Shown here: positions 8,825 through 53,872 of the stretch, in pieces
How positions within the stretch are numbered: the stretch's first letter is position 1
How the letters are laid out: each line of letters begins with the position of its first letter
DNA from: Escherichia coli
Lineage (GTDB): Bacteria > Pseudomonadota > Gammaproteobacteria > Enterobacterales > Enterobacteriaceae
Length of the DNA: 64,000 nucleotides
Assembly: GCF_003018255.1 (NCBI RefSeq)
Contig: NZ_CP027440.1
Strand: one strand, 5' to 3'
Program-made: the position numbers and the translations under genes
Notes under the pieces: model-generated
Seen by the model: the letters and a program-made list of their open reading frames with translations, nothing else
Database searches by the model: none
Told to the model about the DNA's origin: nothing

Positions 8825-8901
8825 GCGCCCTTAGCTCAGTTGGATAGAGCAACGACCTTCTAAGTCGTGGGCCGCAGGTTCGAATCCTGCAGGGCGCGCC
8901 A
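8825..8901 (+). tRNA. argU: tRNA-Arg (anticodon UCU)
   Basis: 77-nt sequence gcgcccttagctcagttggatagagcaacgaccttctaagtcgtgggccgcaggttcgaatcctgcagggcgcgcca with CCA end; anticodon loop cuUCUaa. Confidence 0.95.
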
Positions 8902-18699: not shown

Positions 18700-19900
18700 A
18701 GACAAAAGCGTGGTGTCAAGGAGGGGAGGTTAACGCAGGGAAAGATTACGAAAGCCCGCTCCCAGCAAGGACTGACGCGAGATAGTTTCTGTCCATGGCT
18801 GCTTTTCGCAACTTACGTCTTAACCCTGCCTTGAATACCTTATCATTCGTCAAAATATTAATAGCGATGTGCCGTAGCCCTGAAAATAATTCTGCTGCAT
18901 TTCCTCTTCTTATTTTGCAGTCGTCTTCATTCATTACCACGTCCAGACGCCAGTGCAGCTTATTCTCCACGTGCCAGTGGTTTCGGATTGCTGTGGCGAA
19001 CTTCTCTGCGGTTAAATCAGCAGAACTGATATAATATCTGACCGTCATTTCTGGCTCTTTCTTTTGTTCTGCTATTATTGACCGAAAGGAGACTGCCACG
19101 CATAATTTCTTCAGTCCTTTCCATTCAAACGTGAAATCAATAAGTTCATCAGGGACATCGCAAACAATGTGAAGCCGGATTTCTTCTCTGCCGTGACTCT
19201 TTTCACTAATTGCGTAACTGTCATGCTCTGGATTATTTAATTCTTTCAGTGGGAATTTTTCCTCAAAGGCTTTATTAAGCCGCCCCTGATTTCCTTTTAC
19301 AGCGAATAAATAATCACCGCCCTGTTTTTGTATCTTCTCTGCAATATCTTTCTGGCAACCCATCGCATCAGTTGTGATGATTTTTCCTTTAATATCCAGC
19401 ATGTTAAGAAGTTCTGGGATAGCTGTAATCTCATTAGATTTCTCATCCGTCCTGATCTGTCCGATGACCAGACTGTGCATTGTTGAGAACGCACTAATGA
19501 CATGAATCGCTCCCCTGCGGCGACTCCTGTCATAAGAATGCCGGAGTGTTTTTCCATCGATTGCAATAACGTCTTTATCATCTGAAGTATGGCAATCTCG
19601 CATCCAGTTAATAAAGCACTCGTGAAATTTTGAAGGACTGATACAGGATACAACTCTGGCGATGGTATCGTGAACAGGAATACCATTTTCAAAATCACCA
19701 TATTGTTTTAAAAAATCGAGATGTGTTTCCCCAAAATCCTCTATATCTTCCCAGCCTTCTGCACCAGAAATAACGGCACAAATAGTCAACAGTAGAATAT
19801 CCGACAATTTATGTTCCACTTTCCAGGCTTGTCTGTAATCGGGGATAATAGAAATATGTTCCATCAATTTTTTAAGTTCCATTTTGTTCTCCTTAATTAT
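18700..19900. mobile_element. ISAs1-family (H-repeat) insertion element at the distal end of the Rhs island; boundaries approximate
   Basis: Contains an H-repeat-type transposase ORF; this family is classically found at the end of E. coli Rhs elements. Confidence 0.6.
18746..19882 (-). CDS. ISAs1-family transposase (H-repeat-associated protein)
   Basis: 378-aa [54 protein letters not shown]... typical of H-rpt/YhhI-type transposases. Confidence 0.85.
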
Positions 19901-20272: not shown

Positions 20273-20554
20273 TTATTTTTTTATTTCATTATATCTGATA
20301 AAAAAAGTATTTAGCGCATCATGTTCATCTTGTGAGAACAATAAAATAATTTTATCCCATGAATGTCCTGTTACTCCATAATAGTCTTCAATATAAGATT
20401 GAAGCCTTATTAATATCTCAATATTGACGATTTCTTTTGGCTCTCTCATTTGCCATCCATCCAGGAAAGCTTTTAACGCCGATATGGTATGCCTGCTTAA
20501 ATATAAAGCTGGTCTTTTTTCTATCATATCAATCAGTTTAACAATATCATTCAT
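20273..20554 (-). CDS. putative immunity protein for the orphan Rhs toxin tip (RhsI-like)
   Basis: 93-aa AT-rich ORF starting 2 nt after the toxin-tip stop; position is the only evidence. Confidence 0.5.
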   Translation of the reverse strand: MNDIVKLIDMIEKRPALYLSRHTISALKAFLDGWQMREPKEIVNIEILIRLQSYIEDYYGVTGHSWDKIILLFSQDEHDALNTFFIRYNEIKK

Positions 20555-20556
20555 AA

Positions 20557-21180
20557 TTAAAACCTTGATGGAGTAATGGTGTATTCGCCAGGAGAGTATA
20601 TATCATTCAGCCAATCTTCATACTTTATACCAGAAGGATTCATATTATCAAAAACTGTATCACCTACTTTTATTGCTTCATGATGACCATTAGTTGCTAT
20701 ATTTTTACCTATTCTATCACTCCATATATTGCCAAAGGCACCTTGTTTATTTTTAGTTTCGAGTATGAGATGCTCACCATTTACCCCAGCTTGTTGCATT
20801 TTACTTTTTAACGCTGCGGCAAATTTATCGCATTGAAAAAGCTGTTTAAACTTATCACTTATTGTTGTTGCAAGATCCCTTGTTTTTGCGATATCGCAAA
20901 TGGTTAATCCTAATGGATCAATATAACCAAGGGGATTATGAACATATGCATAATTGTTTATCCCGCCTCTCAGCCCTATCGGGTCACTCACCAGGTACAT
21001 CCCTGTTTCCGGCTCGTAATACCGGAACCGGTTATAGCACAGCCCGGATTCCGTATCCTGCCACTGTCCTGCATACAGCAGGCCGGGGTCGGGGTCGGCT
21101 TCCGGGTCCAGCTCCCCGCGCGGGTCCGGGTAGCCGGTGTCTGCGGGCAGACTGAGTGCCAGCCCCCACAGGCTGGTTTG
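20557..21180 (-). CDS. orphan Rhs C-terminal toxin cassette (conserved PxxxxDPxGL junction plus about 115-aa variable toxin domain of unknown activity)
   Basis: In frame with orphan core fragment after an in-frame TGA; contains YYEPETGMYLVSDPIGLRGG...NPLGYIDPLGL then an AT-rich divergent tail. Confidence 0.65.
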   Translation of the reverse strand, partial: QTSLWGLALSLPADTGYPDPRGELDPEADPDPGLLYAGQWQDTESGLCYNRFRYYEPETGMYLVSDPIGLRGGINNYAYVHNPLGYIDPLGLTICDIAKTRDLATTISDKFKQLFQCDKFAAALKSKMQQAGVNGEHLILETKNKQGAFGNIWSDRIGKNIATNGHHEAIKVGDTVFDNMNPSGIKYEDWLNDIYSPGEYTITPSRF

Positions 21181-22476
21181 TCACGGTCGCCACACGGTTT
21201 TACCTTCACTGTTAAAGAGCATCAGCGGACGGCCCGTCAGGTCGCTCACCGCATGATTCGTCCGCGTCACCCACTGCGGGGCCACCGACGGATGCGGCTG
21301 CCGTACCCGGCTGCACTGCTGGCTTATCAGCTCAAAGCCGTTAAACACCAGGTGCCGTACGCTGTACAGTTTATCATCGCGGTATTCCCGGATTTCCGCA
21401 ATATTGTCGCCGTCCCACAGGTACGTAAAACGGATTTTCTTCCGGTCGCAGCGTTTTTCCGTCCGCCTGCCGCTGGCGTCGTAGCGGTATTCCCACTGCT
21501 CACCCTGTGCGCTGCAATACCCGGTCAGCTGGTCACGGCTGTCCCACCGGAACCGCTCTGTTTCCGGGCGGTAGCCGTCACGGTGTCTGGTGCGGCTGAC
21601 CATCCGGCCTGCGGCGTCATAGTCATACTGCGTGTTTCCGGCCTGTTTCAGCCGGTGGCCTCCGGCATACTGGTCAGTCTCTTCACTTATCCGGTGCCTG
21701 CCCGCAGACTGCGCCTTCAGGTAGCCACAACTGTCATAGCCATAGGACTCATCGCCTTCGCCATAGCCCAGCCCGGTGCCTGAGGCTGTCACCGCCGTGA
21801 CCTGACCGTTCCGGTCCAGCCGGTATTCCCGCCGTGTTTCCCGTCCGTAATCTTCCCGGCTGGTGACAGCCGACACATTGCCCGCGCTGTCGTAACGGTA
21901 CTCCCGTACCAGTGAGGGGAGCAGCCCGCCCCATGTGGTTTCCTCCGGGAAAAATCCGGCGCGCTGGGTGACAAGCTGGCTGGCTGCATTCCAGCCCTGC
22001 TCACAGGCAAAACCCCGGTTACTGTGCCGGAGCACTTCACGTCCTGCCTCATCACGGCTGAACGTCAGCGTCTCATCCCCCGGCAGGATAACCTCCGTCA
22101 GTTCTCCGGCGGCGTTGTAGCGGTAGGTGGTTTTCAGCAGGGATTCACCGGGATGTCTGTCGCGTTCATCTTCCGGTGGCAGGATACAGCGGATGACGGT
22201 GTGTTCATCGGGGTAGTGGTATTCAATGGCCCGTCGGCCCTGAGTGGTGACATTCACCCGCCCGCGTTCGTCATAGCCGGTGCGCTGTGATGTGCCGTCC
22301 GGGCTGAAGATACCCGTCAGCCTGCCGGATTTGTCATACGCATACTGCGTTTTGCCTTCCGGCGTGATGACTTCTGCCAGGCGGCCTGCGGCGTCCCGGC
22401 TGTAGAGGATGGTTTCCTCCAGACCGTTAACCCTGGCGGTACACAGGCCATCGGCGTCATAGCGGTAACGCCAGGC
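21181..22476 (-). pseudogene. orphan rhs core 3' fragment (no start or N-terminus), near-identical duplicate of the 3' core of the main rhs gene
   Basis: About 1.3 kb near-identical at DNA level to 23589-24884; YD-repeat translation; homology to main copy ends at about 22476. Confidence 0.8.
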
Positions 22477-22503: not shown

Positions 22504-22926
22504 TTATCTAGCAATTTGTATTAAGGGGGTTTCACCCACATGTTTTAATAAACTCATTAACCAGATGGCCTCTTCTCTCGTTCCGGAGTATATTACCTTC
22601 GATTCATTTCTAATAATTCGAAGTGCTTCTTTTGTATCAATCGAAAAAGCCTTACGAATGACTTTTATAGTTTCCATCTGTGATTTTATATTTTCAAGTC
22701 TAACATTCCATAAACCCTCAAAATCAATCAATTGTAGACGAATTTTTTCTGGGGGAAAGCCTATATCATCTGATTCACTACGTAATCCGCAATTATGGCA
22801 TATAATTGATTCATACCATGCGAGTATACCATTGTGACTCGTCTGCCCTATAGCTATAGAACATATTTTTCCACAGCAAGGACACTCAATAGTCGTTTTA
22901 AATTCATCACCAAACACTATAACCAC
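22504..22926 (-). CDS. putative immunity protein for the main Rhs toxin (RhsI-like), Cys-rich zinc-ribbon-like N-terminus
   Basis: 140-aa ORF overlapping the toxin stop; CPCCGKIC ... CHNCG cysteine pairs. Confidence 0.55.
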   Translation of the reverse strand: MVIVFGDEFKTTIECPCCGKICSIAIGQTSHNGILAWYESIICHNCGLRSESDDIGFPPEKIRLQLIDFEGLWNVRLENIKSQMETIKVIRKAFSIDTKEALRIIRNESKVIYSGTREEAIWLMSLLKHVGETPLIQIAR

Positions 22927-23588
22927 CCTCTCATCCGCTTATATCTTCGAATCGTCTCGTAAAATTTCTGTTCCATCTCAGTACCTTTGGGATGATGATC
23001 ATTCAATCCTCGCTTCCACCACCTATGATGTAATTCTTCATGAATAATAACATCTCTTAATGCTGCACGAGACGAAAAACTATTTTTACCAAACTGAGTT
23101 CCTTCCCAAAGTTTAGCAATCCCTGTTCGCATAAACGGATTGTATTGAGGGATATATGTTAGTTTAAGATATGCAAAATCTTCTTTAAGTATGGCTGTAA
23201 TTGCCTTATTTCTGGCTCTGGCCGTAGAACCTGTAACATGACCGAGATCAGAAACATAAGTCTGTGGCCCTCTAGAAAACTCGACTGTTTTATTAATTAT
23301 ACTAGTTATAGCTAATCCCAGCGGATCAACATACCCACACGGATTAGGCACATACCGGTAAGTCTGCTCACCCCCCAGCAACCCCAGCGGATCACTCACC
23401 AGGTACATCCCTGTTTCCGGCTCGTAATACCGGAACCGGTTATAGCACAACCCGGATTCCGCATCCCGCCACTGTCCTGCATACAGCAGGCCGGGGTCGG
23501 GGTCGGCTTCCGGGTCCAGCTCCCCGCGCGGGTCCGGGTAGCCGGTGTCTGCGGGCAGACTGAGTGCCAGCCCCCACAGGCTGGTTTG
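22917..23588 (-). CDS. C-terminal extension of main Rhs protein: PxxxxDPxGL junction plus about 130-aa toxin domain with HExxH motif
   Basis: Same frame as Rhs core, separated by TGA at 23589-23591; translation ...[20 protein letters not shown]...VDPLGL then ...[13 protein letters not shown]... Confidence 0.65.
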   Translation of the reverse strand, partial: [223 protein letters not shown]

Positions 23589-26500
23589 TCACGGTCGCCA
23601 CACGGTTTTACCTTCACTGTTAAAGAGCATCAGCGGACGGCCCGTCAGGTCGCTCACCGCATGATTCGTCCGCGTCACCCACTGCGGGGCCACCGACGGA
23701 TGCGGCTGCCGTACCCGGCTGCACTGCTGGCTTATCAGCTCAAAGCCGTTAAACACCAGGTGCCGTACGCTGTACAGTTTATCATCGCGGTATTCCCGGA
23801 TTTCCGCAATATTGTCGCCGTCCCACAGGTACGTAAAACGGATTTTCTTCCGGTCGCAGCGTTTTTCCGTCCGCCTGCCGCTGGCGTCGTAGCGGTATTC
23901 CCACTGCTCACCCTGTGCGCTGCAATACCCGGTCAGCTGGTCACGGCTGTCCCACCGGAACCGCTCTGTTTCCGGGCGGTAGCCGTCACGGTGTCTGGTG
24001 CGGCTGACCATCCGGCCTGCGGCGTCATAGTCATACTGCGTGTTTCCGGCCTGTTTCAGCCGGTGGCCTCCGGCATACCGCTCAGTCTCTTCACTTATCC
24101 GGTGCCTGCCCGCAGACTGCGCCTTCAGGTAGCCGCAGCTGTCATAGCCATAAGTCTCATCGCCTTCGCCATAGCCCAGCCCGGTGCCTGAGGCTGTCAC
24201 CGCCGTGACCTGGCCGTTCCGGTCCAGCCGGTACTCCCGGCGTGTTTCCCGTCCGTAATCTTCCCGGCTGGTGACACCTGACACGTTACCCGCGCTGTCG
24301 TAACGGTACTCCCGTACCAGTGACGGAACCAGCCCGCCCCATGTGGCTTCTTCCGGAAAAAATCCGGCGCGCTGGCTGACAGGCTGGCCGGCTGCATTCC
24401 AGCCCTGCTCACAGGCAAAACCCCGGTTACTGTGCCGGAGCACTTCACGTCCTGCCTCATCACGGCTGAACGTCAGCGTCTCATCCCCCGGCAGGATAAC
24501 CTCCGTCAGTTCTCCGGCGGCGTTGTAGCGGTAGGTGGTTTTCAGCAGGGATTCATCGGGGTGTCTGTCGCGTTCATCTTCCGGTGGCAGGATACAGCGG
24601 ATGACGGTGTGTTCATCGGGGTAATGGTACTCAATGGCCCGTCGGCCCTGAGTGGTGACATTCACCCGCCCGCGTTCGTCATAGCCGGTGCGCTGTGATG
24701 TGCCGTCCGGGCTGAAGATACCCGTCAGCCTGCCGGATTTGTCATACGCATACTGCGTTTTGCCTTCCGGCGTGATGATTTCTGCCAGGCGGCCTGCGGC
24801 GTCCCGGCTGTAGAGGATGGTTTCCTCCAGGCCGTTAACCCTGGCGGTACACAGGCCATCGGCGTCATAGCGGTAACGCCAGGTCACGCCGCCCCAGTCA
24901 TGCTCTTCCGTCACCCGCCCACAGTTGTCGAGAAGATAACGGTATGACTCACCCTGCGGGTTGATGACTTCTGTCAGTTGCAGCGTGTCTTTATCATAGC
25001 GGTACTGCCAGCGGTGGCCTTCACCGTCCGTTCGCGCCACCGGCAAATCAAACGGGCCGTATTCCATTGTCCAGACAACGCCGTTACCGTCCGTGTACGC
25101 CAGCAGGTTGCCGTGGCGGTCATAGCGGAATCCTTCTGCGCCGGTTCCTGCCCGCTCAAGGCCGCTCAGTTTATGGTGCTGCTGCCACTGCAACCGCACT
25201 GACTGACCGCCGGGGCCGCGCATCTTCACCGGCAGGTCGTGACCACTGTATTCGGTGTGGTGTTCACGGCCCATCACGTCGGTGAGTGTTTCCGGCCGGT
25301 TGTGGTGGTCGTACTCTATGCCCAGACGCCGTTCATCCTGGCGGAATATCCCCGACAGCAGCCCCTGAGCGGTGTACGCCAGCCGGGTCTCTTCGCCCTG
25401 TGGCGATACCAGACTCACCGGCAGGCCGCGTTCATCGCACTGCTGTGTCCACGTCTGCCCGGCAGGGTCGGTGATGTTGCTGAGCAGGCCGCGCTCATCA
25501 TAGCGGTACAACCACACCGCGCCGTCTGCCGCCGTATAACGGCTTAACTGACCGTGTACGGCGTTGTATTCAAATTTCTCCACCCGTCCGGCAGGGGAGT
25601 GGCGGGCCAGCAGGTGATGGAATTCATCCCATTCATACGTGGTGGTGCTGCCGTCCGGCGCTTCTTCCCGCAGAATATTGCCGTCAGGATCATAGTAATA
25701 ACGGTGAATGCCCTTGCCGTCCGTCACGGTGGTGCAGCCGTCACTATAGTCCAGCGTGGCGTTGTAATAGCCGTCCGCCCCGGTGACATTCACGCACCGG
25801 CCCTGTTCATCGTAGGTGAAACGGCTCCACGTCTGGTCGTTATCGGACCAGCGGATGATCCGGTCCGCAGCGTCGTACTCATAAAACAGGTGGTAGTCCA
25901 GCCGCGCATCCGCTTCGGTCAGCCGCCCCCGCGCATCCTGTTCGTAGGTCGCCAGCGTCTGTATGCCGTTATCCGTGCGGTGAATGGCTTTCAGGTAGCC
26001 GCTGGCGTGGTACGTCAGTTTAAGCCGGATCCCGTCGGTGTGACTGACACCCGTGATGCGGTACTGGCTGTCGCGCTCAAACGTGATGCGGTTGCTGGCG
26101 GTGTCGCTCATCCCGCCCAGCATGTACATCCGGTCACCGGGGCTGTGTGCCAGGCGGTCATCATTGGTATCGTCAGTCACCGGGTGGCGCAGGCGCATTC
26201 CCGGAAAGGCGTCATAAAAGAAGCGGCTGCTCAGGGCATCACGGTCGAACAGCTCCAGGTAATCGTCGCGGCGGCGCAGGATATACTGGGCGTGATACGG
26301 GTTAACCGCCGTATCACTGTCTCCGTCGAAGGCAAAGTACAGCGTGGCTCCCTGGCTGATGATATCCACCCGGTTTCCCTGTTCACGCACCCAGGCGTAT
26401 TCGCTCCAGGAGTCGCTCCAGCCCACGCCCGTCAGGCCATGCAGTGGCAGTACAGAACTGTGGAAACGGGTGAAGGAGAGGGGGAGTGTCTGGCCCAGCG

Positions 26501-27728
26501 TAAAGTCGGTACGTTCGTCGCAGTATGCGCCGGTTACCGGATCGACAGGATCTGTTACCCATCTGATGACTTTATTGGCAATACTTTTTAACGACTTACC
26601 TGTTTTCCCCAGCAACGCGCCGAGCTTTGCCCCCAGCAGCTTCCCGCTTTTCCCCAGCAGGTTTCCCAGTTTGCCGAGTTTCGCCAGATTCCCCAGTTTT
26701 CCCAGCAGTCCCGCGGGCGGCAGAAGATAGCTGGCTATCGTTATTCCCCCCAGGATCATTCTCTGCCACGGCGGGAACTCCGGCTGGATATCCAGATAGG
26801 TCACCTGTTCACCGCCAATAAAGACGTCCGGCGAACCTTCCACGATTGCCGCGCTGCACTCCAGTTTGTCGCCCTTGCGCGCGGCAGGCTGATTGTTGAT
26901 AAAGACGTTGCTGCTGCCCTGGGCTATCCTCGGTGGTTTGTTCTCCTTGTCGCAGAGCGCCGTGTCCTCACCGGCTTCCGGGAAATCCACGTCTTTTTTG
27001 ATTTCGCCACGCCCGCCCACCATGGTGGCAAACTCCATTAATACCGGACCGGCGGGAAACAGAAGCGATGCGCCGGCGCTGACGCGATCCATAATACCGG
27101 CATTGCTGTCCGTCAGGGTGATAACAGCGTTCCCCCAGGCCTTCGCCAGTGGCACTGCTTTTTCCGCTGCCGATTCAAGCAGGTCAGTGGCAATATCCCC
27201 CCATGAAGGTTCCCCCTGTGGTGGAGAGGGTATTGCTTCAGTCAGGGGAGGAGGGGGAAGGGTGACGGCGGCCCTGGCTGCTGGCTTACCGTTAATTTTT
27301 ACGTTTTCAGAACCGGTATTGATGGCGCCGTCCGTGTCACAAAAACTGTTTATCCATGACTCAAGCTGGTTCTGTTTCTCCTCCACATAATCACTCGCCT
27401 TATAGCTGGCATACATCAGCGCAGGCACCAGAACCAGCGCATAAGGGCCGGTGGCGCAGGCGGCCATAATCAGGCAACCTTCTGCGATAGTTACTATCGC
27501 CCCCAGCACGGCCCCTGCCAGTGCCCCCAGAAAACTTTTATGCTGAATTTCATCGCCCAGCCTGGCGGCAGGTGGGCCGGACTTCTTTGCTGCCAGCATC
27601 TGTGCAATGGCTTTGTCGTTGGCTGCCCGTTTCATCTGGCTGGCGACCATCGCCTGCTGTGACAGCATTCGCATTGCCAGCGTACCGCCTGCGGTCGCTC
27701 CCTGTGGGCCGCCTGGTCCTTCACTCAT
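23589..27728 (-). CDS. prePAAR/PAAR-domain Rhs repeat protein (T6SS effector core with YD-repeat shell)
   Basis: 1379-aa ORF; prePAAR motif [10 protein letters not shown] near N-terminus, PAAR motif ([14 protein letters not shown]), many YD repeats (YRYD, YEYD, YDxxGR); ORF ends at in-frame TGA before the DPxGL region. Confidence 0.9.
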   Translation of the reverse strand: [1379 protein letters not shown]

Positions 27729-27747: not shown

Positions 27748-28209
27748 TCAGCGCGGCTGGTCCTTTTGGATGTCATTCTCCGGTGGCAACGGGGTGAAGC
27801 TCTTTATCACCTCCAGCAGCATCGTCTTTTGACTGTTCTTCAGGGATAAGGAGGTGCTGAAAGTGAAGGTCAGCAGCGTATCTCCACGCCGCTGGAATAC
27901 GGCTATCTGGTCAATCCGTCCCTGGTTCCCCTCATCTTCCGGACCGTTCCAGGAATAATCCAGCAGCCAGGCCGGGGCCTCTGCCAGAGTGATTTCCCGG
28001 CAGGCATGTTCGGTGTACCCATCAAGTTTGCCCTGGTACAGCGCCAGCGTTTCCTGGTACAGCTCTGGTGTCAGGGTTCCCTGTGGAACGGCTTCGCGGG
28101 TAATGACCAGGTTGATGCCACTGTTATCTGTGGACACCAGGACCTGCATTGACTGATCCTGCCATTGCGATGGCAGCTGAATATGACCTTCATTAAAAGT
28201 GAACTGCAT
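27748..28209 (-). CDS. DUF1795/Eag-family effector chaperone (inferred)
   Basis: 153-aa ORF between vgrG and the prePAAR-Rhs gene; size and position typical of Eag chaperones for prePAAR effectors. Confidence 0.65.
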   Translation of the reverse strand: MQFTFNEGHIQLPSQWQDQSMQVLVSTDNSGINLVITREAVPQGTLTPELYQETLALYQGKLDGYTEHACREITLAEAPAWLLDYSWNGPEDEGNQGRIDQIAVFQRRGDTLLTFTFSTSLSLKNSQKTMLLEVIKSFTPLPPENDIQKDQPR

Positions 28210-28236: not shown

Positions 28237-30138
28237 TCAGTTGATGAAAACAGAACCGCCCACGATGGTGATGCCATCCTTCGACAGCCTGATTACCGTC
28301 GATTCCCCGACCTGTAGCTGAATGCCATCCGGCGTCAGCGCAATTTTGCTTTCCTCCACGGCCAGCATAATTTGCTTAATTGCCGTATAAGCCTGTATAC
28401 CGTCGCCTTCGCCACCATTGTTTACAGCGTCAACATGCACTGAACCGGCAATCGTGCCTCTGTCCTGAAAAACATCCTCAGATAAAGACCCTTTTAGTAC
28501 GCCTGTGATTTTGTGGCCTTTTTCCACCGTAAGAAGGCGGTTACCTTCCTGGATCATGACCGTCTGGTCATTTTTTACGGTTTCGCGGTGATCGTGTTTT
28601 ACGGTGGTGGTACGGTCGTTGAGTACCTCGGTATCCATGTTCTTCTGGGCGTGGATGTAGACCTGTTCTTTCCCTGTCGCATCGTCAAACTTCAGCTCGT
28701 TAAACCCGCTGCCCATATATGTTTTGGAGCGGATGGTCATCTGCGTCTTCGTTCCCGGCAGGCTGCCCGGCGAGCGGTTATCTTCGTGGTAGGTGCGCCC
28801 CATAATGATCGGCTGGTCCGGATCGCCGTTGAGGAAGTCCACAATCACCTCCTGACCCACGCGCGGTATCGCCAGGTTGCCAAATCCCGGCCCCGCCCAC
28901 GCCTGCGCCACCCGTATCCAGCACGAACTGTCCTGATTGGCCGGGTTATAGCGGTCCCAGTTGAATTTCACCCGCACCCGGCCATGCTCGTCGCAGAAGA
29001 TTTCCTCTCCCGCAGGCCCCGTCACGACGGCGCTCTGCGGACCGTCCACTGACGGCTTTGGCTTCGGCTGAGGTCGCCACGTCCGGTCTGCCGGTATTAC
29101 CGCAAAGTGGTTATTCAGCGTGGTACCTGACCCCCTGCGTCCCGGCACCGCCTGCGGCTGTTCGCCGTGCAGTTCGCTCGCCACCACCTGCCATTCCCGG
29201 TTCAGGTTCGCCTGCGGATGCTCCGTCAGCACAATTCGCCGTCCAGGCCATATCTCCGGCGAGCGGCTCATTCCCCGCGCGGTTTCGGCGTTGTTTCGCC
29301 AGCCGTCCATCTGCCAGCGGGCAAAGTTCTGCCCGTGGGCGCTCTTGAAACGCCCGGGCCAGTCATACACTTCATACTGTGTGCGCTGGTAATCCTGATG
29401 CTGGCCTTCCTGGTCAAAACGTCCGGCCCAGCCGGGGCGTTTAAAGGTGTAGTCTTTGGTCACCACAGAGGAAGGACGGATTTGTGCGCTGTAGCGGAAC
29501 TGGCTGATGCAGAGGGTGCTCACCTCGGTACGGGTGTTCGGGTTCCAGGGGATTTCAAAGGATTCCGGCAGATAGCGGACCGTGTCGCACAGCACCAGAC
29601 TCTGGTCGGTACTTTTCTGCGCGTGCTCCTCATAGAAGAAGATGCCTTCCTCCGCTGCTATCCGGCAGAGAAAGTCGTAATCGGTTTCACCGTACTGGAC
29701 ACAAAACTCACGGGAAGGATGCGGCTCACTGAACAGCGGGCTCCACTCCGTGACGTCATTTTCCTGCAGTATGGTGCCGAGGATGCTTCTGATGTCCTCG
29801 TTCTGGAATATACGGAAGTTCTGACGCAGTCCTGCCCGCCACAGCGGCGGGCGCACCTTCATGCTGTACAGCATCTGGTTTTTGTCGTTCTCCCCGAGTT
29901 CAAACCAGGTCACCACGCCTTTCACCCGGCGCTGTACGTCATCGCCCTGCCATACCGTCAGGTAGGCCATTTTGTCCAGCACCTGCGCAAATTCAAGGGA
30001 GAGAAACTGCTGACTGACCAGAGAAAGGTCAAGGGAAAAAAGTGAAGAGAGTGACTGGGTGAGATGAAAGGAGACCACCGCAAAAGCGTCCGGTGGCAGG
30101 CCGTCCACTTCCAGTGTGAAACGTAATCCGGTTGACAT
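28237..30138 (-). CDS. vgrG: type VI secretion spike protein VgrG
   Basis: 633-aa ORF starting MSTGLRFTLEVDGLPPDAFAVVSF... with gp27/gp5-like regions and C-terminal beta-helix repeats. Confidence 0.9.
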   Translation of the reverse strand: MSTGLRFTLEVDGLPPDAFAVVSFHLTQSLSSLFSLDLSLVSQQFLSLEFAQVLDKMAYLTVWQGDDVQRRVKGVVTWFELGENDKNQMLYSMKVRPPLWRAGLRQNFRIFQNEDIRSILGTILQENDVTEWSPLFSEPHPSREFCVQYGETDYDFLCRIAAEEGIFFYEEHAQKSTDQSLVLCDTVRYLPESFEIPWNPNTRTEVSTLCISQFRYSAQIRPSSVVTKDYTFKRPGWAGRFDQEGQHQDYQRTQYEVYDWPGRFKSAHGQNFARWQMDGWRNNAETARGMSRSPEIWPGRRIVLTEHPQANLNREWQVVASELHGEQPQAVPGRRGSGTTLNNHFAVIPADRTWRPQPKPKPSVDGPQSAVVTGPAGEEIFCDEHGRVRVKFNWDRYNPANQDSSCWIRVAQAWAGPGFGNLAIPRVGQEVIVDFLNGDPDQPIIMGRTYHEDNRSPGSLPGTKTQMTIRSKTYMGSGFNELKFDDATGKEQVYIHAQKNMDTEVLNDRTTTVKHDHRETVKNDQTVMIQEGNRLLTVEKGHKITGVLKGSLSEDVFQDRGTIAGSVHVDAVNNGGEGDGIQAYTAIKQIMLAVEESKIALTPDGIQLQVGESTVIRLSKDGITIVGGSVFIN

Positions 30139-30881: not shown

Positions 30882-32330
30882 TTAACCTTTCTCCGGTAGT
30901 TTGATCATAAACCTTGTCCCCCGAGCATCTGACGTTACTGCAACCGTGCCTTTATGCGCGACAACAATCGATTTCACTATCGCCAGGCCAATACCGCTAC
31001 CTTCGCCTTTTCGCTGACGGGAGGGGTCAACGCGATAGAAACGGTCAAACAATCGCGGTAAGTGCTCGGGCGCAATGGGCGTACCGGGGTTTTCGACGGT
31101 AACTTGCACCAGGTGATCGACCGTCTGGCAGCGCACGACAATTGTCTCTCCGGTTGGCGTATAACGCAGGGCATTAGAAAGCAGGTTGCTTAACGCCCGA
31201 CGCAGCATCAGCGGATCGCCCGCAACCTGACACTCGTCGCCAACAAACCGCAGCTCCACGCCGCGATCTTCTGCTAACGCCTCGAAAAAATCGAACACTT
31301 TGCCGACTTCATCCGCCAGGTTGAGCATTTTCTTTTCGGGGATTAGCTGGTTGTTATCGGCCTGAGCGAGAAACAGCATATCGCTGACCATTTTCGCCAT
31401 TCGCGTCAGCTCTTCGAGATTAGAGTAGTGCACATCTTCCAGCTCCTTCTGGCTGCGCGACTGGCTGAGGGCGATTTCCGTTTGCGTAATGAGATTAGTA
31501 ATAGGTGTGCGAATTTCGTGGGCGATATCCGCTGAGAAATTGGACTGGCGGGTAAAGACATCCTCAATACGCTCGATCATATGGTTGAACGACAGTACCA
31601 GCTGTTCCAGCTCAATGGGCACGGTCTGCGGGTCAAGGCGAACGTCGAGATCTTTCGAGGTAATGTTCTGGATTTGACGGCTGACGCTGCGGATCGGCGC
31701 GTGACCTTTATGTACCGCCAACAGCACGATAAAGACGATCAGGATGCTGATTACCGATGCGGTCATAATAAGTTTATTCATCAAATCATTTATGTAATGA
31801 AGATGAAAATCGATCGAAAGCGCAATGTAGAGCGTATAAATCGGTTTGCCGTCCACCAGTGGGCCAACCGGCAAGCTAATCATCCGCCAGTTGCTGTGTT
31901 CCATATGCCCGTGACCGTGGCCCGGCATCATCATCGTCGGGCCGGAAAGGAGATACACCTCGCCGCCCTGCGCGTCTTTATCGGGTATGGCGTCACGCGT
32001 AAACTCGCGGATATCCGGCGCTCCGGGGGAGTGATACACCGTTTTACCGTGGCTATTTGCCAGGGAGATCAACACATTGGAATAACCACTGACGATATCT
32101 TCCAGCGTCATTAAGCGTCGGGCTTGCGTTTCGTCAGGGTGATTAAGTACCCGTTCAAGGGTGGCGCTAATCTCCTTTAAATCATTAATATCCTGCTCGG
32201 CAAAATGCACTTTTACCGAGTGGATCATGATCCATGCAAAGGCGAAAAACGCCGCGATGGTGGCGAGGCTGATAAAAAAGGTCAGGCGGGTTGCCAGCGA
32301 AAACGGGCGCTGAAATGGCTTACTGACCAT
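30882..32330 (-). CDS. cusS: copper/silver-sensing histidine kinase
   Basis: 482-aa ORF with two TM segments, periplasmic domain, HisKA (H-box [10 protein letters not shown]) and ATPase domains. Confidence 0.93.
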
Positions 32331-33003
32331 CCGGCACCTCTAGCATGTAACCCACGCCGCGCACGGTTTGAATCAGCTTCGGCTCAAAGTCGTTGTCGAT
32401 TTTGCCACGCAGCCGCTTCACCGCCACATCAATGGCGTTAGTGTCGCTGTCGAAATTCATGTCCCACACCTGTGAGGCAATAAGTGAGCGGGGCAGTACT
32501 TCGCCCTGATGGCGAAGGAAAAACTCCAGCAGAGTAAATTCTTTACTGGTCAGAGTGATGCGCGTGCCACTGCGGGTGACTTTGCGGCTGACGAGATCGA
32601 CCATCAGATCGGCAACCTGAAACTGACTTTCGATAATCACCGCCGCCCCGCGCCGCAGTAGAGTGCGCACCCGCGCCAGCAGTTCAGCAAAAGCGAACGG
32701 CTTCACCAGATAGTCATCCGCCCCCAACTCCAGCCCCTTGACGCGATGTTCAATGGTGCCAAGCGCGGTAAGCAACAGAATCGGCATCCCCTTATTGGCG
32801 GAACGCAACATGCGCACGATATCCCAGCCGTTCACGTCCGGCAGCATAATATCGAGGATTATCAGATCATAATCACCGGTCATCGCCAGATGGTAGCCAT
32901 TCAGCCCGTTGTCGGCCAAATCGACCACAAAACCGGCTTCGGTTAACCCTTTGGTCAAGTATTCTCCGGTTTTCTTTTCATCTTCGACAATCAACAGTTT
33001 CAT
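32320..33003 (-). CDS. cusR: copper/silver response regulator (OmpR family)
   Basis: 227-aa [19 protein letters not shown]..., receiver plus winged-helix domains, overlaps cusS start. Confidence 0.95.
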
Positions 33004-44827: not shown

Positions 44828-45259
44828 TTATGTTGGCGTTTTCTATTCAGTATAGAAGTCGGAGCGGCTGGGCGAGATGCGGAAGTTCTGGAATGTTTCT
44901 TTTTTTGATGATGGTGACTGAAGCAAATTGGCTACATTTTGCAATATGACAAGTTATGGCAGTGCGGACTGGTGGCGAAGAATTTTGACGATTGAGGCAT
45001 GCAGAATAAAACGGGTTCAGCTTCAGTTGATCAAATGAGGATTGAGAAGTCCGAAACAGGACTTACTGTATAAATAAACAGCTATTTTGCTAAGGAAGGG
45101 TAAGATAACGGCGGGTGCCTGAAGCTTTCCGGTTTCAGGTTTACTCTGAGGTCTGGAAAGATGAAGCCCCAGGAGATATTTCTATCAATCCTGGGGCTGC
45201 CACTCCAAACCCAAACAATTTGGATGGTAGTCCCTTCTTCGCATGGAGGCAATATAAAC

Positions 45260-45397
45260 ATGCTGACGAAATATGCCCTTGTGGCGGTCATGGTGCTGTG
45301 TTTAAAGGTAATTTTTATCCGGTTTATTCGGAGCAATAGTGATTGCAAGCGTATCAAGAAAATTCTTATAGAACTGAGCAATTTGTTGCCAGAATGA
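45260..45397 (+). pseudogene. hokE: hokE toxin gene remnant (Hok N-terminus intact for about 15 codons, then unrelated sequence)
   Basis: ATG 45260 encodes MLTKYALVAVMVLCL (Hok family N-terminus); after about 45304 the frame reads KVIFIRFIRSNSD..., unlike Hok; expected position downstream of ybdK. Confidence 0.5.
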
Positions 45398-53780: not shown

Positions 53781-53872
53781 GCAAAACTGCCTGATGCGCT
53801 ACGCTTATCAGGCCTACACTATCCTGCAATATATTGAATTGGCAAGATTTTTGTAGGCCGGATAAGGCGTTC
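53781..53872. repeat. REP palindromic units between entD and fepA; the last unit is interrupted by the IS
   Basis: gcctgatgcgctacgcttatcaggcctac ... gtaggccggataaggcgttc ends at the IS left end; the matching gccgcatccggc half is found at 55312-55323 after the IS right end. Confidence 0.75.

Follow-up and report, generated by a model that had tools for sequence, protein, structure and literature searches.

The question that this locus raises is why an rhs gene of full length, together with the orphan rhs cassette downstream of it, are both interrupted by an identical in-frame TGA, and whether that codon is a mutation, a recoded signal or an error of assembly. The window, meaning the whole 64,000-nt stretch of DNA analysed, belongs to an E. 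coli chromosome and contains a vgrG-eagR-rhs island with cusS on one side and nfrB on the other. The first-pass annotation had reported the in-frame TGA at 23589-23591 and again at 21181-21183, and both are confirmed by the sequence and by the ORF listing. Its description is corrected on strand: the rhs genes are oriented on the minus strand, and the plus-strand letters 'tca' at the two sites correspond to a minus-strand TGA. The island is made up as follows.

28237..30138, minus strand: vgrG heading the island, 100% identical only in the three TGA-allele genomes
27748..28209, minus strand: DcrB-related (DUF1795/Eag-type) chaperone gene upstream of rhs, whose genuine stop is TGA
23592..27728, minus strand: truncated main rhs ORF, 1379 codons, with prePAAR motif, PAAR, DUF6531 and YD/RHS repeats
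23589..23591, minus strand: premature TGA of the full-length rhs, codon 1380, ancestrally GGA/GGG (Gly)
22917..23588, minus strand: in-frame continuation of the main gene, with the last 92 Rhs core residues (Rhs_assc_core, two DPLGL motifs) and the toxin tip, closed by TAG at 22917-22919
22504..22926, minus strand: putative immunity gene for the main toxin, whose match in relatives is WP_073568922.1 ('hypothetical protein'), with 100% identity in both JNE23-011 and DETEC-S792
21184..22475, minus strand: orphan rhs core fragment 5' of its TGA, without N-terminus or PAAR, homologous to main 23592..24883
21181..21183, minus strand: TGA of the orphan rhs fragment, identical to the main stop
20557..21180, minus strand: in-frame continuation of the orphan, with core end and toxin tip, named 'papain fold toxin domain' by PGAP in relatives
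20273..20554, minus strand: putative immunity gene for the orphan toxin, corresponding to WP_001561591.1 of relatives

The full-length PAAR-Rhs gene (27728..23592) is terminated by the TGA at 23591..23589, and the ORF listing gives a minus-strand ORF at 23589..27728 with an ATG start and 1379 aa. Past this stop the translation remains open for 223 codons, to 22917, through the remainder of the core, the DPxGL motifs and the toxin tip. The orphan, listed as an ORF at 21181..22257, has the same peptide around its stop (21183..21181), and its frame continues to 20557. The stop had been placed exactly between the YD-repeat shell and the motif preceding the toxin; it is in fact codon 1380, which belongs to the conserved Rhs core and precedes the core end by 93 codons. 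In the repaired protein, NCBIfam assigns RHS_core to aa 1358-1472, Rhs_assc_core to aa 1406-1472 and YD repeats (TIGR01643) to 11 stretches, while Pfam, run on the N-terminal 1161 residues only, finds prePAAR_I (PF25799) at aa 54-100 (E = 1.4e-4) and PAAR_motif (PF05488) at aa 267-310 (E = 9.4e-10); the AARLGDEIQH peptide can be read in the main translation. The NCBIfam scan returned no toxin family for either the repaired full protein or the orphan C-terminal region. An HEELH (HExxH) motif is visible in the translation of the main toxin tip, and this motif is the sole basis for the label 'zincin-like'. Each tip is followed by an intact small ORF that is conserved in relatives and for which NCBIfam gives no family match in either case.

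The main gene can be placed among the T6SS class I prePAAR PAAR-Rhs effectors on sequence criteria, by a prePAAR motif with a transmembrane segment, by the PAAR domain, and by the vgrG and Eag/DUF1795 chaperone genes adjoining rhs; in near-identical relatives the counterparts of 28237..30138 and 27748..28209 are annotated 'VgrG' and 'DcrB-related protein'. A second vgrG-like site is present in relatives, at another point of the genome. Intact E. coli effectors of this class (WP_001289017.1 in E. coli W, WP_456287228.1 in JNE23-011) occupy the same cusS-nfrB locus in the same gene order, namely vgrG, DcrB-related/Eag chaperone, rhs, immunity gene, orphan cassettes and ISAs1, and have the same domain set (prePAAR_I, PAAR, DUF6531, YD repeats, Rhs_assc_core); identity between the window and JNE23-011 is 99.6% over 21 kb. 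In contrast with these intact proteins, the window has TGA in place of Gly at codon 1380, so that its ORF breaks off 92 residues short of the core end and lacks the toxin; downstream, both window copies also contain a duplication of 6 bp that adds an Asp-Pro. The repaired core aligns through its last 450 residues with Photorhabdus laumondii Rhs1/Tre23 (PDB 7PQ5; E = 1.9e-81) and the Salmonella bongori Rhs core (8QJB-8QJD; E of about 1e-43), across the stop position and as far as the core's DPxGL end, whereas the window product would end inside the aligned region. The Rhs_assc_core/DPxGL region that closes the cage and the toxin both lie after the TGA, and are not predicted to share one polypeptide with the rest. 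The main rhs is thus, as judged from its predicted domains, a member of the effector family by descent, and its ORF as written is an incomplete member.

The alignment of homologues proposed in the first-pass annotation identifies the residue that the stop replaces. The codon context is CCG GGA/GGG CAG in the three E. coli W copies, in the main gene of JNE23-011 and in strains N3, D8, DSM 103246 and IGC. Glycine occupies the position in all 155 copies found on 120 metagenome contigs (GGG in 105, GGA in 50), the single match in the species-representative genome collection also reads GGA/GGG, and the S. bongori Rhs (PDB 8QJB/8QJD) has a Gly aligned to it. On this comparison, the stop arose by a G-to-T transversion in the first position of the codon, turning Gly GGA into TGA. 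The single G-to-A change from TGG that had been suggested earlier does not hold, and a tryptophan ancestor is ruled out by the GGA/GGG of all homologues.

The TGA allele is rare and restricted in its distribution. The two states of the stop site would be told apart by the k-mers GGCGACCGTGACAAACC and GGCGACCGGGRCAGACC. The exact 71-nt TGA haplotype occurs in three of 5426 complete E. coli genomes, about 2330 of which contain the core segment itself, and TGA is present in none of the 155 metagenomic copies; the exact truncated protein is recorded from one NCBI contig. In DETEC-S792, the main gene and three orphans all have the TGA, and PGAP calls them pseudogenes with an 'internal stop' (PID00_RS24295, RS24280, RS24270, RS24260). 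This strain shares the 71-nt haplotype, the vgrG allele and the toxin/immunity pair with the window, but its four copies lie in a flanking backbone about 0.9% diverged, whereas the two copies of the window lie in a backbone identical to that of JNE23-011. In JNE23-011, a near-clonal relative, only the orphan has the TGA and the main gene is intact (WP_456287228.1). With a sense codon in homologues and a stop that is rare and lineage-restricted, the window gene is, on this sequence evidence, a nonsense-mutation pseudogene, as PGAP already calls the same allele in DETEC-S792. The same island is inactivated in other strains, for instance by a frameshifted rhs in strain N3, and a premature stop has been described in an STEC Rhs (bioRxiv 10.1101/2024.03.05.583533).

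The presence of the stop in both copies is best understood from two further features.

23468..24078: 611-nt identity block, 100% identical to orphan 21060..21670
23559..23700: recombination patch differing at 12 sites, the stop included, from JNE23-011's intact main gene; here the window main gene has the orphan haplotype

The TGA lies inside the 611-nt block, whose flanks are diverged (about 5% upstream). Over main 24100-24400 the two copies differ at more than 20 sites, and each tip is toxin-specific below 23380 (main) or 20970 (orphan). Because the copies are 100% identical over these 611 nt around the stop, the main and orphan stops are not two coincident events. Compared with JNE23-011, the window has no difference across 8.6 kb of flank (nfrB-nfrA-ybcH-ompT) and one across the 5.2 kb from vgrG to the 5' part of rhs, but 25 mismatches and a 6-bp indel in rhs between 25200 and 23300. 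These differences fall in three patches, each of which matches another cassette; for three clustered substitutions, no ectopic template was found within the window. The combination of an identity block with mosaic patches is, at the level of sequence, the mark of gene conversion, or concerted evolution, among tandem rhs repeats. The earlier option of a nonsense mutation spread by gene conversion is supported by the sense codon in homologues, the small lineage, the block and the patches. The main gene of the more distant DETEC-S792 also carries TGA, which suggests that the JNE23-011 main gene was repaired; the JNE23-011 patch resembles the main genes of strains N3 and D8, which suggests that the JNE23-011 state is ancestral. 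The allele may have moved from orphan to main or may have been removed from the JNE23-011 main gene.

We consider it highly probable that the TGA is an ordinary recent nonsense allele which has spread among the rhs repeats, with loss or strong reduction of toxin delivery. We propose that a G-to-T change turned a conserved Gly codon, GGA, into TGA within the 3' end of the Rhs core, in a stretch repeated in the full-length rhs and in a silent downstream orphan cassette, and that short-tract homologous recombination made the copies identical around the mutation. Both copies would carry the stop because gene conversion between the tandem repeats homogenised the mutated region. The main product would be a 1379-residue prePAAR-PAAR-Rhs protein without the last 92 core residues (the Rhs_assc_core/DPxGL autoproteolysis region) and without the toxin, and the delivered-toxin function of the vgrG-eagR-rhs island would be lost or greatly reduced. 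A comparable arrangement of a full-length rhs followed by an orphan toxin/immunity cassette is known from rhs-main/rhs-orphan of Salmonella Typhimurium (Koskiniemi et al, 2014, PMC3967940), where several hundred bp of core homology are the site of recombination between the two (PMC3967940). In Salmonella this recombination activates the orphan toxin; in the window, by contrast, the homology itself carries the stop, and recombination would spread or maintain an inactivating allele and leave any chimera truncated. Recombination with the orphan would not rescue the main gene since the orphan has the same stop.

As a counterpoint, the locus looks intact apart from the stop, its toxin and immunity region being 100% identical to that of a strain with an intact gene. 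The further decay downstream that is expected of a pseudogene is not seen, the frame being open and this region unchanged from the intact allele. Such an absence fits a very young allele and says nothing on selection; without secondary decay, loss of selection is not proven, and the allele may be too young for decay.

An alternative, which is compatible with the recent-nonsense-allele reading, is that the stop removes the secreted form only, and that the toxin tip and the immunity gene are expressed from an internal promoter and start 3' of the TGA, in the manner of a toxin-antitoxin pair. Internal expression of toxin tips is known in Salmonella Typhimurium (Starsta et al, 2020, PMC7043789), where a transcript initiates 89 nt upstream of the sequence for PxxxxDPxGL, and the product made from a CTG start is toxic and is neutralised by the immunity protein (PMC7043789). 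The corresponding start position in the window would fall 3' of the TGA, and both genes, toxin and immunity, are intact. However, a consensus scan of the minus strand from the stop to the toxin found no sigma-70-like site, and we regard this internal expression as unlikely.

A functional leaky stop, at which a near-cognate Trp-tRNA would read the UGA at a low rate, could deliver a small dose of full-length toxin alongside a majority of toxin-less PAAR-Rhs, a situation tolerated or selected. The main stop stands in the context CGA CCG UGA C, followed by an intact downstream frame, toxin and immunity gene. A C-terminal Pro reportedly weakens termination (a finding ascribed to Hayes, Bose and Sauer in 2002), and a C following UGA is said to do likewise (attributed to Poole and colleagues in 1995). 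Reporters in E. coli K-12 show about 2-4% UGA read-through (PMC10570021), and at the pheL end CCC_UGA is read through at about 4%, with tmRNA tagging as well (PMC3082878). Some incidental read-through is likely at Pro-UGA-C, a comparatively weak termination context, and a certain amount of full-length protein may thus still arise. A dedicated function is quite improbable, since the TGA is not conserved (3/5426 genomes, 0/155 metagenome copies) and Trp would take the place of a Gly conserved as far as Salmonella. The penultimate residue is moreover Arg, which lowered recoding at Pro-UGA in the pheL study, and UGA termination is more efficient in natural isolates than in K-12 (PMC3082878). The RNA 3' of the stop gains no folding stability over shuffled sequence (z = 0.38), and the small hairpin present there is encoded by the conserved QTSLWG peptide and found in sense-codon alleles as well. 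Programmed read-through, as offered in the first-pass annotation, finds neither a conserved stop across homologues, a trait expected of read-through or selenocysteine codons alike, nor a stimulatory structure (SECIS or read-through element) just 3' of the stop, by fold z-score (0.38) or by any Rfam family at gathering score in the region. The +1 frameshifting seen at the pheL CCC_UGA is also set aside, as at this site Arg precedes a CCG codon and no slippery re-pairing would be expected.

A combined version would make Pro-UGA-C a leaky attenuator, in which a mostly toxin-less cage still sits on VgrG with a few percent armed, internal toxin-antitoxin-like expression also preserves toxin and immunity, and the allele, tolerated or useful, has persisted and spread in cassettes and in two E. 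coli backgrounds; we hold this to be very improbable.

An assembly or polishing artefact would require the main copy to be truly GGA, with orphan reads mis-assigned in the repeat and the consensus homogenised. The stop does lie inside a 611-nt stretch identical between copies, and the nearest relative has TGA in the orphan only, which is the state that such an artefact would distort. Yet all 12 sites of the 142-nt patch are orphan-type in the main gene, not the stop alone, and copy-specific differences persist just 122-139 nt past the stop on its downstream side (23467, 23462, 23450). The source contig is a resolved chromosome of 4.89 Mb, and the independent complete assembly of DETEC-S792 has TGA in the main gene with private main-copy SNPs kept. 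This earlier option has very little probability left, the same allele being found in independent complete assemblies in different copy combinations.

Selenocysteine has a negligible probability and is effectively refuted: E. coli has the Sec machinery and a 7-bp GC-rich hairpin begins 4 nt past the UGA, but its spacing and loop do not fit an fdhF-type SECIS, shuffled sequences fold just as stably, Rfam gives no match at gathering threshold, and homologues carry Gly, not Cys or Sec. An alternative genetic code is ruled out, the window being 99.6% identical to an E. coli chromosome, and eagR and vgrG, immediately upstream of rhs, stopping at TGA.

For annotation, this strain's rhs effector in the cusS-nfrB vgrG island should be listed as a pseudogene with an internal stop (Gly1380 to stop), and not as a recoded gene. 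Silent orphan cassettes, usually seen as a store of alternative toxins, recombine with the expressed gene and can just as well share an inactivating mutation with it; conversely, repair of the main gene may have taken place in the JNE lineage. With the stop in both copies, the orphan-activation route shown in Salmonella would be blocked. The current understanding of Rhs and T6SS biology is unchanged by this allele.

The full-length PAAR-Rhs gene (main copy) and the downstream core fragment without N-terminus or PAAR (orphan copy) both lie on the minus strand, and the plus strand reads 'tca' at 23589-23591 and at 21181-21183.

23589..27728, minus strand: main rhs open reading frame, 1379 codons
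21181..22257, minus strand: orphan rhs open reading frame

The in-frame TGA that the first-pass annotation reported in both copies is borne out by sequence and translation. Past the main stop, the frame stays open to a TAG at 22917-22919 and encodes a tip with HEELHH; the orphan frame encodes an identical peptide around its stop and then reads into a tip unlike that of the main copy, with its end at 20557. The placement of the stop exactly between the shell and the conserved motif was imprecise, as it lies within the conserved core, 93 codons before the core end. In a domain scan of the main protein repaired by replacing the stop with Gly, NCBIfam RHS_core covers residues 1358-1472 and Rhs_assc_core (TIGR03696) residues 1406-1472, and the alignment with solved Rhs cages (7PQ5, 8QJB-D) runs unbroken across the stop position. 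Codon 1380 is therefore inside the conserved core, since the RHS_core match and the cage alignments both span it. As written, the main product would be a prePAAR-PAAR-Rhs protein with no toxin and without the final 92 residues of the core, to which the DPxGL region belongs. The Rhs core here contains two DPLGL motifs 22 residues apart, and the core motif before DPLGL is RYYEPETG (window ~23425-23440, minus strand). Many Rhs/Tc proteins have Asp where this motif has Glu; RYYEP is present in 164/164 fetched copies of this particular E. coli Rhs family, of which this Glu is a trait.

The locus is a T6SS class I prePAAR PAAR-Rhs effector island of the ordinary kind. Over 21 kb, the region shares 99.6% identity with the chromosome of the near-clonal E. 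coli relative JNE23-011, and the gene order, from the annotations of JNE23-011, of DETEC-S792 (a more distant E. coli carrying the TGA allele) and of E. coli W, is cusRS, vgrG, a DcrB-related (Eag-type) chaperone gene, rhs, a small ORF, the orphan rhs fragment, another small ORF, a SymE remnant, ISAs1 and nfrB-nfrA. Pfam assigns prePAAR_I, PAAR, DUF6531 and RHS repeats to the N-terminal 1161 residues of main Rhs. The ISAs1-family transposase ORF (18746-19882) is intact (378 aa), whereas the JNE23-011 copy differs by 5 SNPs and is annotated with an internal stop. Other features of the window are four tandem Rfam naRNA4 copies (CssrE, REP-type elements) at 1892-2269 with 100-nt spacing and, both with Rfam matches above the gathering score, a sok antitoxin RNA of a hok/sok-type locus (45113-45268) and the ES036 sRNA (53810-53851). 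The region 3' of tRNA-Arg(TCT) (8825-8901) is a decayed prophage remnant, in which the JNE23-011 annotation places frameshifted remnants of integrase and tail-fibre-assembly genes, and ompT, as far as ~12000.

Among 5426 complete E. coli genomes, ~2330 contain the core segment, and only 3 the exact 71-nt stop-bearing version (TGA haplotype). In DETEC-S792 the main gene and three orphans carry it, and PGAP labels all four as pseudogenes with 'internal stop'; JNE23-011 has it in the orphan only, its main rhs being an intact 1601-codon CDS (WP_456287228.1); and JNE112863 has it in one copy, with the same match pattern as JNE23-011. A 100% identical vgrG is found only in these three strains, and the exact truncated Rhs protein is recorded from one NCBI contig (4.89 Mb). 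Its presence in independent assemblies shows that the TGA allele is real; it is rare, and a single island lineage carries it. The codon context in every other copy examined is CCG-GGA/GGG-CAG (Pro-Gly-Gln), the sense-codon genomes being E. coli W (three copies), JNE23-011 (main), N3, D8, DSM 103246 and IGC_RcoliRes. Metagenome copies, fetched by a degenerate pattern able to match TGA or TGG as well, carry a Gly codon in 155/155 cases on 120 contigs (105 GGG, 50 GGA), and the Salmonella bongori Rhs core has Gly aligned at this position. Species-representative genomes gave a single match, a sense codon (GGA) on a 3.5-kb contig of a MAG labelled Collinsella sp.; this contig, JAIJJM010000330.1, bears an E. 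coli-type rhs core and is probably a binning contaminant. Gly is thus the residue that homologue alignment normally gives at this codon, and the stop arose from a Gly codon by a G-to-T transversion rather than by the TGG-to-TGA change first proposed. Relative to the nearest sense haplotype, there are three substitutions within 16 nt (window 23586-23601: GTC to GTG, GGA to TGA, CAG to CAA), none seen in the 155 metagenome copies or other examined genomes, and a search within the window found no template for them. Three private substitutions in such proximity suggest that several nucleotides changed in one event, or that an unsampled donor supplied the stretch.

The proposal that gene conversion made the nonsense mutation common to both copies held up. 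Core homology between main and orphan extends over ~1.5 kb (24883..23388 vs 22475..20980), and a 611-nt block that includes the stop (23468..24078 = 21060..21670) is 100% identical, the copies differing at ~5% of sites upstream of it. A 6-bp tandem duplication, GACCCC (EADPDPGL vs EADPGL), found in both window copies (23501-23506, 21093-21098) but lacking in both JNE23-011 copies and in three out of four from DETEC-S792, likewise marks the window copies as homogenised with each other; fetched loci have EADPGL in 134 copies and EADPDPGL in 2. The window and JNE23-011 show 0 differences over 8.6 kb of nfrB-nfrA-ybcH-ompT, 1 over 5.2 kb from vgrG to the 5' part of rhs, and 25 mismatches plus a 6-bp indel in rhs at 25200-23300, in three patches.

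25075-25098, six SNPs: window main gene like a DETEC-S792 orphan cassette, JNE23-011 main gene like the DETEC-S792 main gene
24556-24630: JNE23-011 main gene of orphan type
23559-23700: window and DETEC-S792 main genes of orphan/TGA haplotype, JNE23-011 main gene near the N3 and D8 main genes

Mosaic patches of this kind, between chromosomes that otherwise match, are the signature left when short-tract gene conversion acts repeatedly among cassettes. The DETEC-S792 orphan cassette resembling 25075-25098 is missing from the window, and the patch implies past conversion from a cassette since lost, or an external donor. External imports occur at this locus too, since 39 clustered SNPs in cusS/cusR (window 31111-32671), with flanks identical to JNE23-011, look as if one of the two lineages had imported the stretch by homologous recombination. 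DETEC-S792 as outgroup points to an ancestral main gene that already had the TGA and was repaired later in the JNE lineage, and the likeness of the JNE23-011 patch to main genes in other strains points to a window main gene converted by its own orphan; whichever direction the patch went, the stop moves with a recombination tract.

Stop-codon read-through at the UGA, another early suggestion, is a possible trickle and not a mechanism. Pro-UGA followed by C is a weak termination context. E. coli K-12 reporters show ~2-4% UGA read-through (PMC10570021), and the CCC_UGA end of pheL ~4% with tmRNA tagging; however, a basic penultimate residue, Arg in main Rhs, suppresses recoding at pheL, and non-K-12 RF2 terminates better (PMC3082878). 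The TGA is not conserved (3/5426 complete genomes, 0/155 metagenome copies), the folding of the 81 nt around and beyond the UGA is no better than that of shuffled sequence (z = 0.38), the sole hairpin lies in the codons for the conserved QTSLWG peptide and hence exists in sense alleles as well, and no Rfam family matches the stop region at threshold. Some incidental read-through would nevertheless be expected at the main-copy UGA. If the locus behaves as in Salmonella, where the toxin tip is made from an internal promoter and CTG start 3' of the equivalent position and acts in a toxin-antitoxin-like module (PMC7043789), production of the tip would survive the stop, but a simple promoter scan gave no site on the minus strand. 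An assembly artefact, in which polishing homogenised the repeat copies and so gave the main gene its TGA, is unlikely: all 12 sites of the 23559-23700 patch are orphan type in the main copy, copy-specific differences persist 122-139 nt downstream of the stop, and DETEC-S792, independently, has the TGA in a main copy that retains private SNPs. A non-standard genetic code is ruled out, as eagR and vgrG, neighbours of rhs, have genuine TGA stops and the code is therefore standard.

Gly1380-to-stop is a recent, lineage-restricted nonsense allele in the repeated part of the Rhs core, common to main and orphan copies via gene conversion. The downstream frame, toxin and small 3' ORF are undamaged and match the intact JNE23-011 allele at 100% identity, which fits a very young mutation and is uninformative on selection. 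Inactivated rhs genes are nothing exceptional at the cusS-nfrB island: frameshifted copies occur there in strain N3, and a preprint describes an STEC Rhs that a premature stop splits (bioRxiv 10.1101/2024.03.05.583533). In Salmonella, main-orphan recombination activates orphan toxins (PMC3967940), whereas here it would yield only truncated chimeras, because both copies have the stop. Public annotation already treats the allele as a pseudogene. The finding is of interest for annotation; it brings no new mechanism, and the rhs array is a small illustration of concerted evolution.
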